30,805 bases of DNA from a virus: the UHGV virus genome UHGV-0077717, one strand, 5' to 3'. Made by a program: the position numbers. This document shows, one piece after another, positions 3,001 through 6,000 of the stretch (the first letter of the stretch is position 1; each line of letters starts with the position of its first letter).

Positions 3001-6000
3001 CTTGGATTTGTAGATCCACTTCTATCAGGAATATGCCCTTCCGGAGCATTCCATATTATCTCCGTATCAGGCATATCAATTGCCAGGTCGCCGCGTGTAA
3101 TTACAATATTGTTTGTTAGTATCAACTCTTTTATATTTGTTGTGATTTTTTTTGCTGGTGAGTTAATTGCTTTATGAAATGCTTCGGTGTTGTCAGCGCC
3201 ATCTTTAGCTCCGAAATCCTCAAGCATAACATTATATATATCATCTGATTTCCATACATTTCCTTCTGATGTGAAAATTATCGTTCCTCCGTTATCTGTC
3301 AATCCATCAGGATTAACACTACGGAAAAACCTTCCACCTCCTGAATAGCTGTCAGAGTAATATCCCCTCAGTCTTATAACCTGTCCATCATAACTTGGTT
3401 CAATTGTTCTCAATGTAGATATATCTTTGCATTCTCCTATATACTTATAGCCATCATCACTTTTCAGCAAATATGAAAACTGATCTGGATCGTACTTCAG
3501 CACATTAGGGAAATAGAACTGCTGTGATCCATATGCATCGTACACAGCCATAGAATGCCCTTGTACAGTAACGAACTTAGCAATCTGTCCGTTATATACA
3601 GGATAACCAGCAGCGTTAATGATGATTGGTTGAGAAACAGGAACGTGAGAGCCGTCTTCGTTCTCTACATAAACCGGAATCTGGTTTTCAGTATTTACCG
3701 GGTCAGTGTCAATTTTACCGATATAAATTTTGCCATTGGCTACGGCTTTAAAAGAACGAGCCATAGTGAAGAGTTGCGAAGGCATCGATACGATCACATT
3801 GGCTGTAATGTCTGTCATTTAATTTGCTCCAGATGCAAGGAATCGCCGCAGCGTGGCTACGGTGAATTTTGGGCATAAAAAAAACCCAGCCGAAGCTGGG
3901 TCGTTGCGTTGGTTATCTGTCAGTAGTTATGTACTGAAGGAGGTAATTCTTTATTCTTAAGTCTCATCCATGCGGAAAGATTCGTTGGTCCGTCTGGTTC
4001 ATTAATATCAACATCTCGTGTGTGGTTTATTAAAACGTCTCTCGCCATTCCGATAACATACGAGAATTCATGACCGTAGTCGTAGCATCTGCCGGAATAG
4101 TTCGATTGAATTTGTTTTAATGCCGGATACAGTTCGCGGAATAATGCCTGTGAGCGGTTGGCATAATCCCATAACCATACAAGGCTGTTTGCTTCTTTTG
4201 CAGAAAGCTCGTTGGTTTTCTTCTCTTGTTTGCCGATGAACTCTCCTTCAAGCGGAACGCGAGCTGCAAGTGACAGTGCTTCGGTAAACTGCTCCTCACT
4301 AATTTCTTTGTACGAACATCCAAAATGGGATTTCAGTGACGACCACATGGTGATCATCGCCTTAGCCTGTTTTTCTTTTGGCAGAGACTGACCGCGACTC
4401 ATGACGAGTTGTTTAATGGCTTCCTGCTGTTCAGTGGTGATTTTACCCGGCAACGCCTTTTTAGCTTTGCGTGGGTTAACTACATGGCCTTTAGTCCAGT
4501 ACTCGTAGAGCACATCGTCACACTCTTCCTGATACTGGATTACCTTGTCGCGGATTTCAGGGCGGACTTTGTTAGGGCTGATGGTTTGCAACCAGCCATT
4601 CAGTTTACGTAAAGCAAGGCAAATCATGGTCTGCACACCGCCAACTGAAGGTATTGCGATTTCCACAATACCTTTAGCAAATCTTTGTTTTAACTTTGTA
4701 AACTGTGAAGCCCAATCCATACCCATTCCCTCAACGATAGGTTTCATTGGGGTATACGGTTCGCCGTTGTGATTGACAACATAAAGCTCTGCGCCGTGGA
4801 ATGGTACATTGATAGTAGATGCTGCTGTTGCTATACTTTTCATGTCAATATTTCCTAAGACGATTTGTTGATACCGAAGCCCTGACTGTTCCAGCAGTTG
4901 GGGCTTCACTGTTTTTGTAAGTCACTGTAGCTATAAAGCCACTGACCACTCATTTTTGATTTGATTGACTCTACTGAGTCACGGCAAGGAATGATTCCGC
5001 CTGACATCATTCTGATTTCCGTAAATTCACCACTCCTTATCGATTCAATGCCATCAATGTTAACTAAAGATTTACCTCTACCAAGTGCATTCTCATAGCC
5101 AATCTCATCAACCTCAATAAACCTCATACCGTTATCCCCTCTCTCTTCAGGCTGTCCAACACCCGTTTAATTACTTCTGCGCTGAATGAGCGACACTCTT
5201 CCTTTGCTTTTTCTTCAAGGATTTTTTCTAGCTTCTCTGGCATACGCAGTGTTTTTACCTTCATTGCATCCTCCGTTGTATGTGGTACGCATACATAGTA
5301 TTTAGGTACGCATTGATAGTCAATAGATACCTACATATCCTGTGGTAAAAAATTATTCAGGATGCGCCGATGTCTGATCGTAAGTACAAAAACCCTCAAG
5401 TGAATCTGAGGCTTCCTGTAGAGATAAAGGAACGTCTTATTGAACTGGCTGAGGCTAATTCTCGTTCATTAAATGCTGAGATGGTCGCGGCACTTGAAGC
5501 GTGGACCGAAAAAAACAAACACATTCAAGCGCTAGATCTTGCAACTATAGCATCGCGACTGATAGAGCTTGAGCATGATGTTGAGAAGTTAAAATGTATG
5601 CATGGCAATGGTGAAAAATGAAACGTATCGCTATCCTATTGCTCCTGTGTCTCTCGAGCATAGCTAACGCAGAAACAAAATCAGACGATAGCAGTTTTGA
5701 TGAAATACAAGGCCTCATGATAGCTTCTAAAATGGCTGGTATGTGTGGTGCAATCAAACAAATGGCAATATTCCAAGAATCTACAAACATGCCAGGTGGG
5801 AATGAATTCTTACAGAGATTCCTTACTACAGAGCAAGCAAGGCTCGGGATGACTCCGCAGCAATTTCTTGAAGCATGTCAGAAATCAATCTCTATTTATA
5901 CCACCTATTACAATATGAGCTCTGAGAAAAAATAGACTAGGATTTCAACGGCTTCCGCGTCCCTGAGTGATTCTGTTGCGGATTTGCTTCTTGCGGTGGT

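Follow-up and report, generated by a model that had tools for sequence, protein, structure and literature searches.

What does a P22-like prophage gain from a secreted protein whose gene begins inside the stop codon of a repressor gene? The question is raised by UHGV virus genome UHGV-0077717, a stretch of 30,805 nucleotides (nt; hereafter the window) that is an Escherichia coli P22-like (Lederbergvirus-type) prophage. An open reading frame (ORF) of 105 amino acids (aa), here called ORF105, overlaps the end of a mnt-like gene. An earlier note on this DNA had proposed that ORF105 encodes a periplasmic protein made constitutively by lysogens, as expected for a superinfection-exclusion or lysogenic-conversion factor. 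We find that ORF105 is a conserved gene whose product appears to be exported, and that it belongs to a family reaching far beyond phages. The best explanation of the whole, which we offer tentatively, is that ORF105 is a functional accessory (moron) gene acting in envelope protection or phage exclusion. The features on which the argument turns are these:

5618-5935, + strand: ORF105, whole gene including the stop codon (TAG, 5933-5935), 105 aa; from the ORF list, phrog_19844 and RefSeq.
5370-5621, + strand: mnt-like gene for a ribbon-helix-helix repressor, 83 aa; Pfam Arc domain, 3.1e-10; RefSeq WP_001283828.1, 'Arc family DNA-binding protein'.
5610-5621, + strand: coupling junction, GGTGA (5610-5614) followed by AAA and ATGA; read from the sequence.
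5295-5341: two promoter-like sites pointing apart, one Pant-like (- strand) and one Pmnt-like (+ strand), and an inverted repeat, laid out as in the annotated P22 immI region.
6147-6168: first strong hairpin 3' of ORF105, AAACCCACCTGACGGTGGGTTT; likely bidirectional terminator.

The ATG of ORF105 (5618-5620) overlaps the mnt stop codon (TGA, 5619-5621) in an ATGA, as the earlier note had described for an ORF at 5618-5935. The Shine-Dalgarno-like GGTGA lies 3 nt 5' of this ATG and agrees with the 3' part of the extended Shine-Dalgarno sequence. ORF105 was matched over its full length by the phrog_19844 hidden Markov model (E = 1.1e-69; residues 1-105 align to positions 1-105 of the profile). 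Over 1.5 kb around ORF105, the window is 100% identical to the DP051 chromosome, where RefSeq annotates the gene as WP_000820796.1, hypothetical. For the core of the protein (residues 36-105), the ratio of nonsynonymous to synonymous substitution rates (dN/dS) is 0.046 compared to the Citrobacter allele (dS 2.5) and 0.099 compared to the O104:H4 allele (dS 1.1); evolution is much faster in the signal peptide and in the ~17 mature residues after it. The low core dN/dS, the phrog_19844 match, the RefSeq annotation and the retention of the mnt overlap in divergent alleles all argue against a chance ORF, and we regard it as virtually certain that ORF105 is a real, selected gene. Its G+C content is 40%, compared to 47.7% for the whole window. 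An 81-aa antisense ORF (5545-5790) was rejected as a gene, as its matches at other loci merely shadow ORF105.

That the upstream gene is Mnt-like, another claim of the earlier note, is borne out by its Pfam Arc domain, by a DNA-binding domain that is 42% identical to that of P22 Mnt across the 36 residues aligned (the two proteins being nearly equal in length), and by its position in the immI region, opposite arc, sar and ant. Between arc and mnt, the Pmnt-like site (TTGATA-17-TATCCT, + strand, 5313-5341) diverges from the Pant-like site (TTGACT-17-TACTAT, - strand, 5323-5295), and an inverted repeat with 18-nt arms at 5299-5337 is a candidate operator. Pmnt is the only evident source of transcription for ORF105. 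The hairpin at 6147-6168 has a weak T-tract on the + strand and a good one on the - strand, where it would serve a lipoprotein gene described below; we infer that it also ends the mnt-ORF105 transcript. The late operon runs antisense to ORF105, so that late transcription cannot be its source. We therefore propose that its product belongs to the prophage state and is absent from lytic growth, with transcription coming from the Mnt promoter and translation coupled to that of mnt through the ATGA and GGTGA. Co-expression of ORF105 with mnt is, in our judgement, likely.

The link to mnt is conserved in prophages of E. coli, O104:H4 included, and of Citrobacter. ORF105 is present in 54 of 5426 complete E. 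coli genomes, at ≥95% identity in 36 and at ~76% in 18 (including O104:H4 outbreak strains), and in all 54 the match overlaps an Arc-family coding sequence. The 4-nt overlap with mnt, first noticed in the window, is also kept in the O104:H4 and Citrobacter freundii (65% protein identity) versions. Furthermore, the junction AAAATGAA is invariant in an alignment of four versions (window 5610-5625; L027 1915-1925; L028 2997-3007; L003 3997-4007), even where the mnt alleles are very different; one of the four has another gene 3' of it. The mnt allele of the window occurs in 142 of the 5426 genomes; compared to the 54 carriers of ORF105, this places ORF105 in the coupled position in about four of ten.

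A comparison of gene content 3' of mnt in other P22-like prophages, which the earlier note had suggested, showed both that ORF105 is conserved and that the coupled slot can hold other cargo. In the NRG857C prophage, apparently the counterpart of the LF82 prophage Gally, the junction is kept with an unrelated 69-aa gene in the place of ORF105, and in phage Kapi1 a 69-aa gene overlaps the mnt-like gene by 4 nt. From its sequence, the AAAATGAA junction gives the impression of a fixed site at which alternative cargo genes dock and become translationally coupled. Kinship of ORF105 with the 69-aa Gally/Kapi1 gene was rejected, as there is no resemblance and the latter has no N-terminal signal peptide.

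The protein itself divides into two parts, numbered here as in the precursor:

5618-5671, + strand: signal peptide, residues 1-18, MKRIAILLLLCLSSIANA; recognised by its n, h and c regions and the -3/-1 rule.
5672-5932, + strand: mature domain, 87 aa, 9.8 kDa, isoelectric point 5.0; predicted three-helix bundle with invariant C43 and C87.

The N-terminus, MKRIAILLLLCLSSIANA followed by ETKSD, has an n-region with K2 and R3, a hydrophobic core of 12 residues (I4-I15; best 10-residue Kyte-Doolittle mean 3.15), and A16-N17-A18 before E19. A charged n-region, an h-region of 7-15 residues, small residues at -3 and -1 and the lack of a lipobox are the marks of Sec export and processing by signal peptidase I (SPase I), and ORF105 has them all. 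The assignment for ORF105 is rule-based only. The earlier description of this segment as a canonical signal peptide holds up, given the n/h/c anatomy ending in A-N-A/E and the persistence of the feature across the family: a hydrophobic N-terminal segment is found in 244 of the 247 members that have the core motif, out of 252 proteins of 95-125 aa used for family statistics. For the Kapi1 homologue, the GenBank record carries a DeepTMHMM call of 'signal 1-22, outside 23-103'. SPase I cleavage is predicted after A18, and ORF105 is very probably exported to the periplasm. A lipobox ([LVI][ASTVI][GAS]C) is absent from ORF105, which rules out a lipoprotein of the Cor/Llp type; a lipobox-like motif occurs in 6 of the 247 core-motif members.

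The AlphaFold model of the mature protein (m49374fc5fd21, built on a 116-sequence alignment) has a predicted local distance difference test score of 88, above 95 in the core, with helices at mature residues 6-38, 43-58 and 62-85; the full-length model adds a signal-peptide helix. In the model, the invariant Gly-x-Cys-Gly of helix 1 and the invariant Cys of helix 3 sit at matching heights of two parallel helices. Invariance and helix register together suggest that a C43-C87 disulfide staples helices 1 and 3, and a disulfide-stapled three-helix fold is, as modelled, probable. Exactly two cysteines are present in the mature part of 240 of the 247 core-motif members. On reading the mature sequence of ORF105, we saw no strongly hydrophobic stretch. 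A BFVD structure search with the ORF105 model gave no match better than E = 0.28, and sequence-profile searches of the PDB with 9- and 116-sequence alignments gave none even at E = 10. No relative was detectable among known exclusion proteins, lysozyme inhibitors, immunity proteins or periplasmic chaperones.

A word-indexed search reached no further than 11 close clusters (E. coli, Salmonella and Citrobacter). When 1.84 billion cluster representatives were searched with a profile, 257 clusters (50% identity) were recovered at E ≤ 0.001, 164 of them at E ≤ 1e-10, and nearly all are ~100 aa long. The family spans the Proteobacteria and beyond, with relatives in Salmonella, Citrobacter and many uncultured bacteria. 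Named sources include Yersinia, Pseudomonas, Vibrio, Methylophaga, Luteimonas, Nitrosomonas, Sulfurimonas, Burkholderiales, Thermodesulfovibrionales and Pseudobdellovibrionaceae, and every entry is 'hypothetical'. C43, Q53, G61, E72, R75 and C87 are invariant in both an 80-sequence alignment and the 116-sequence alignment; in the latter, K38, G41, G44, F64, R67, F68 and Y94 are invariant as well. Of 50,697 isolated phage genomes, just those of Salmonella phage S.Kent 1-2-1 and of E. coli phage Kapi1 contain a member, and the family is absent from the 72,556 plasmids searched.

No family in Pfam, NCBIfam or PADLOC (including Ivy, MliC/PliC, PliG and anti-phage defence families) matched ORF105 at E values up to 1, and a Pfam scan of 80 family members returned no consistent family and none covering any member. 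Ten distant members (from Kapi1, Pseudomonas, Vibrio, Yersinia, Sulfurimonas and others) matched phrog_19844 as their sole PHROG, and neither that entry nor the RefSeq entries assign a function. We found no study of the ORF105 protein in the literature. Nor did we find a published description of how broad the family is, of its invariant cysteines and fold, or of its link to mnt, and in this sense these features are new.

Two kinds of variant were seen. Alleles were compared with the window copy (5618-5935) and with Kapi1_059 (L001 3941-4249): P0006 joins a Kapi1-type N-terminus (MKRWVIGAFCFLISGLAQSQDKDLKFANDML) to a window-type core, and P0010 joins the same N-terminus to an O104-type core. 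By sequence, these mosaics indicate recombination within the gene, where the variable leader and N-tail meet the conserved core. P0022 (202 aa), P0156 (174 aa) and P0147 (135 aa) are rare variants comprising two tandem domain duplications and one lipoprotein form with an LLVGC lipobox; enzymatic-domain fusions were not encountered.

The genomic context of the family differs between enterobacterial phages and other settings. In enterobacterial temperate phages, both P22-like and Yersinia lambda-like, the family gene follows an Arc/Mnt-type gene. In the Yersinia prophages, an Arc-domain gene (2.8e-13), the ORF105 homologue and antirepressor genes lie inside the tail-gene cluster. In a Citrobacter freundii P22-like prophage (L003/L004 3756-4946), mnt, the ORF105 homologue and a 204-aa relative of SieA are co-oriented in one string. 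This SieA relative is 28% identical to P22 SieA over 112 residues (pairwise E = 1e-8), with an RYPGEA motif in common; ORF105 itself has no match to it in an all-against-all BLAST and has neither the homology nor the architecture of SieA.

Elsewhere, a Pseudomonas copy is carried on an integrative element with genes of a cyclic oligonucleotide-based antiphage signalling system (CBASS), a resolvase and an integrase. Other copies are found in P4-type and other integrase islands, beside insertion sequence elements and adjoining a CRISPR-cas locus, and one lies just 3' of Rhs/Tc-like toxin genes, among small ORFs. In Methylophaga sp. 41_12_T18 (L012 4022-6400), the copy lies in an array next to a divergent tyrosine recombinase (Phage_integrase + SAM_4), is flanked by attC-like imperfect palindromes (TAACAAG...GCGTTAR; TAACAAG ... 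GCGTTAAGC / GCGTTAGAG), and looks like an integron gene cassette. Clustering of neighbours within 2.5 kb at 52 loci showed that only Arc/Mnt (19 loci), Ant (19) and gp16 (16) recur, all in enterobacterial phages. All-against-all BLAST of the neighbours, at 17 and then 52 loci, revealed no recurrent partner outside the enterobacterial immI genes, which suggests that the family works alone, as an autonomous module. In Sulfurimonas and in a Chromatiaceae island, ORFs of 131 and 133 aa (L019 4609-5004 and L013 5582-5983) overlap the start of the homologue by 4 nt, as mnt does; they have no detectable similarity to each other or to Pfam.

In the window, ORF105 is surrounded by the following genes:

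8822-10153, - strand: gp20-like DNA-transfer gene.
6690-8825, - strand: gp16-like DNA-transfer gene.
6175-6594, - strand: lipoprotein gene, MKRIISVVAGAIMLSGC; phrog_6823, function unassigned; weak PEGA-domain match.
5945-6130, - strand: 61-aa coiled-coil ORF; phrog_7586; weak XhlA and DUF3847 matches.
5124-5264, - strand: arc.
4906-5127, - strand: orf73, a 73-aa ORF; phrog_11805, function unassigned.
4845-4910, + strand: sar antisense RNA, opposite the ant leader; Rfam RF00262, 62.1 bits compared to a gathering score of 43.
3920-4843, - strand: ant.
1371-3818, - strand: tailspike.

On the - strand, the genes follow one another as in the P22 late operon. As in P22, mnt, arc, sar and ant lie between the gene-16 and tailspike homologues, and the immI module looks complete, with its regulatory circuit intact. 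The interval from mnt to gene 16 is the known hypervariable 'ant moron' (Villafane et al.), with ten gene-content types in sixteen genomes (PMC2629481). In the P22 annotation, the mnt terminator comes after orf59a and is followed by sieA, which has its own promoter.

Several other features were seen in this region. The lipoprotein gene at 6175-6594 has a promoter-like site (6653-6625) and a good terminator (6168-6147) and is a second candidate for an envelope protein in the same slot. In O104:H4 prophages, the slot holds a different, 161-aa lipoprotein on the other strand, as the next gene after the ORF105 homologue. The 61-aa ORF is convergent with ORF105 and over its first 60 residues matches part of Kapi1_061 exactly; a transcript of mnt and ORF105 would cross it in antisense before reaching the hairpin. 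On the other side of mnt, orf73 overlaps the arc stop codon by 4 nt; P22 has no gene between arc and ant, and at the orf73 position of the Citrobacter prophage a small ORF was called (52-74 aa).

How, then, might ORF105 serve a lysogen? In the mechanism that we propose, Sec export and cleavage after Ala18 would release an acidic, 87-residue periplasmic three-helix protein. It would be a stand-alone module, with no partner gene travelling along outside phages. The mature protein would bind a conserved component of the periplasm or envelope, so that the lysogen is protected at the envelope. Most likely, this protection would take the form of blocking the entry of a superinfecting phage after adsorption, in the class of P22 SieA and T4 Spackle, possibly by blocking a conserved enzyme or host factor needed for crossing the periplasm. 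In P22, Mnt is a prophage function directed at superinfecting genomes. Envelope-level protection is suggested by the link to a prophage-state repressor, the sieA slot, the SieA relative and the defence-gene island. Exclusion in particular is supported by the sieA slot, the Citrobacter SieA relative, the antirepressor neighbours in Yersinia and the CBASS element in Pseudomonas. Phage exclusion or envelope defence, as suggested by these contexts, ranks first among the functions we considered, but as a specific assignment it is doubtful.

Several observations weigh against protection from phages. The mature core is near-invariant from Enterobacteria to Sulfurimonas and Thermodesulfovibrionales, and also in non-phage settings. 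SieA types are <30% identical to one another (PMC10883804), and the ORF105 core is unlike such co-evolving exclusion proteins. The near-invariance of polar residues across phyla is easier to reconcile with a conserved target than with an arms race against particular phages. The Kapi1 homologue is not coupled to mnt. Expression in lysogens from Pmnt is an assumption drawn from promoter-like motifs and the conserved overlap: mnt transcripts were below detection in a Kapi1 lysogen (PMC12922286), and mnt of the LF82 prophage Gally was up 40-fold in macrophages compared to LB culture (PMC9928086) and is thus condition-dependent. The constitutive production in lysogens that the earlier note had expected is, on these data, not assured. 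Lastly, the C43-C87 disulfide, while probable, is read from invariance and helix register in a model.

A broader version of the protective role can be stated, which we consider speculative and distinctly unlikely. ORF105 would be the first phage member to be noticed of a new class of single-protein periplasmic defence or protection factors that move among prophages, integron cassettes and islands of diderm bacteria. A disulfide-stapled three-helix bundle of 85 residues would bind a universal envelope component and so block a conserved envelope-crossing step, whether of the DNA-delivery machinery of phages or of some other attacker acting in the periplasm, and in enterobacterial phages it would have been wired to the Mnt anti-superinfection circuit by translational coupling.

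The strongly conserved core, which implies a conserved target, would also suit a periplasmic inhibitor or 'orphan immunity' protein that acts against envelope-attacking enzymes, is not specific to phages and serves as a fitness (lysogenic-conversion) factor. Its targets might be lysozymes or lytic transglycosylases, amidases or muramidases of type VI systems, or toxins of the colicin or pyocin type. The product predicted here, small, acidic, periplasmic and probably with one disulfide, would fit this role, and so would the occurrence of the family as a one-gene module in prophages, islands and integron-like cassettes across many diderm lineages, with one copy just 3' of Rhs/Tc-like toxin genes. 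However, ORF105 has no sequence or fold similarity to known inhibitor or immunity families, no cognate toxin gene is recurrently adjacent, and immunity proteins usually diverge fast with their toxins, unlike the ORF105 family. We consider such an inhibitor unlikely, though little more so than phage exclusion. If the inhibited enzyme were a virion murein hydrolase, as with T4 Spackle, inhibition and phage exclusion would be one and the same.

The macrophage data raise a further alternative, that ORF105 is a periplasmic stress or host-adaptation factor that helps the lysogen in the gut or in macrophages, either as an HdeA-like chaperone or as a modulator of the envelope or lipopolysaccharide, for example of O-antigen length or modification. 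By analogy, its size, acidity, helicity and single disulfide resemble those of HdeA/HdeB-type chaperones; the Gally mnt region is induced 6- to 40-fold in macrophages (PMC9928086); and Kapi1, whose O-antigen modification gene is still unidentified (PMC8787464), has a homologue. However, many family members come from marine, freshwater and soil taxa without an acid or host challenge, Gally itself lacks ORF105, and the O-antigen machinery is too variable to account for a conserved core, making this role improbable.

Kapi1 provides one more lead. Cloning vectors carrying a 'hyp19' deletion construct proved toxic in non-lysogens, and the authors suspected a flanking hypothetical gene (PMC8787464). 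From the quoted 2% coverage of a 21-residue match and the presence of exactly four hypothetical genes between hyp19 and the tailspike, we infer that hyp19 is the 722-aa Kapi1_058 (L001 4295-6463). The flanking hypothetical gene would then be the ORF105 homologue Kapi1_059, which may cause the toxicity.

The weakest alternative, an uncleaved signal anchor that would tether ORF105 in the inner membrane facing the periplasm, where it could act like a membrane-bound exclusion protein or be toxic when overproduced, fits the rule-based nature of the export predictions, the toxicity on high-copy vectors in non-lysogens of a Kapi1 construct that by our gene mapping probably carries Kapi1_059 (PMC8787464), and the lipobox-like motif in 6 of 247 core-motif members, which suggests that membrane proximity is tolerable, but it is very improbable, as the alleles of the window, O104:H4, Citrobacter, Kapi1 and Yersinia all have small -3/-1 residues after the hydrophobic stretch while the peptide varies freely, arguing for cleavage, and a hydrophobic core of ~12 residues is short for a stable anchor.

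Prophage envelope proteins decide which phages, and sometimes which toxins, attack a lysogen, and few soluble periplasmic examples are understood. Among complete E. coli genomes, ORF105 has a frequency of ~1%, with the O104:H4 outbreak lineage among the carriers, and no annotation anywhere assigns it to a family. Being small, strongly conserved and autonomous as a single gene, it should be easy to study by experiment. If its protective role is true, ORF105 represents a new mobile defence or protection family and helps explain the fast turnover of the mnt-to-gene-16 slot; if not, it is one more conserved moron.

Compared to known systems, the general arrangement, a moron in the ant-moron slot on the mnt transcript, is familiar. 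As in the P22 ant moron, ORF105 lies between homologues of genes 16 and 9, oriented as mnt and opposite the late operon. The earlier note had stated that P22 has no such gene at this position. As the annotated P22 mnt terminator lies after orf59a, P22 does have a small gene on its mnt transcript, as the position of ORF105 implies for the window, and in this respect the statement does not hold; it stands insofar as orf59a is an unrelated gene without a signal peptide. The orf59a product is a hydrophilic, cytoplasmic-looking protein of 59 aa with no sequence relation to ORF105, and its gene lies ~100 nt 3' of mnt, whereas ORF105 overlaps the mnt stop codon; kinship between the two was rejected on the lack of resemblance and of a signal peptide. 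P22 SieA, also unrelated in sequence, is a polytopic inner-membrane protein, whereas ORF105 is predicted to be soluble and periplasmic. Cor, Llp, HK97 gp15 and Ltp are, like ORF105, envelope proteins expressed from prophages by single-gene morons. However, ORF105 differs from them in having no lipobox, no membrane span beyond the signal peptide and no homology; the Cor matches that we obtained belong to the neighbouring lipoprotein gene, where they cover its signal peptide only. T4 Spackle (gp61.3) is made as a precursor of ~97 aa with a signal peptide and is a largely helical, periplasmic protein that inhibits the virion lysozyme gp5 and blocks superinfection. ORF105 has no fold or sequence similarity to it; by analogy of function, Spackle is the best parallel for a soluble periplasmic exclusion factor such as we propose ORF105 to be.

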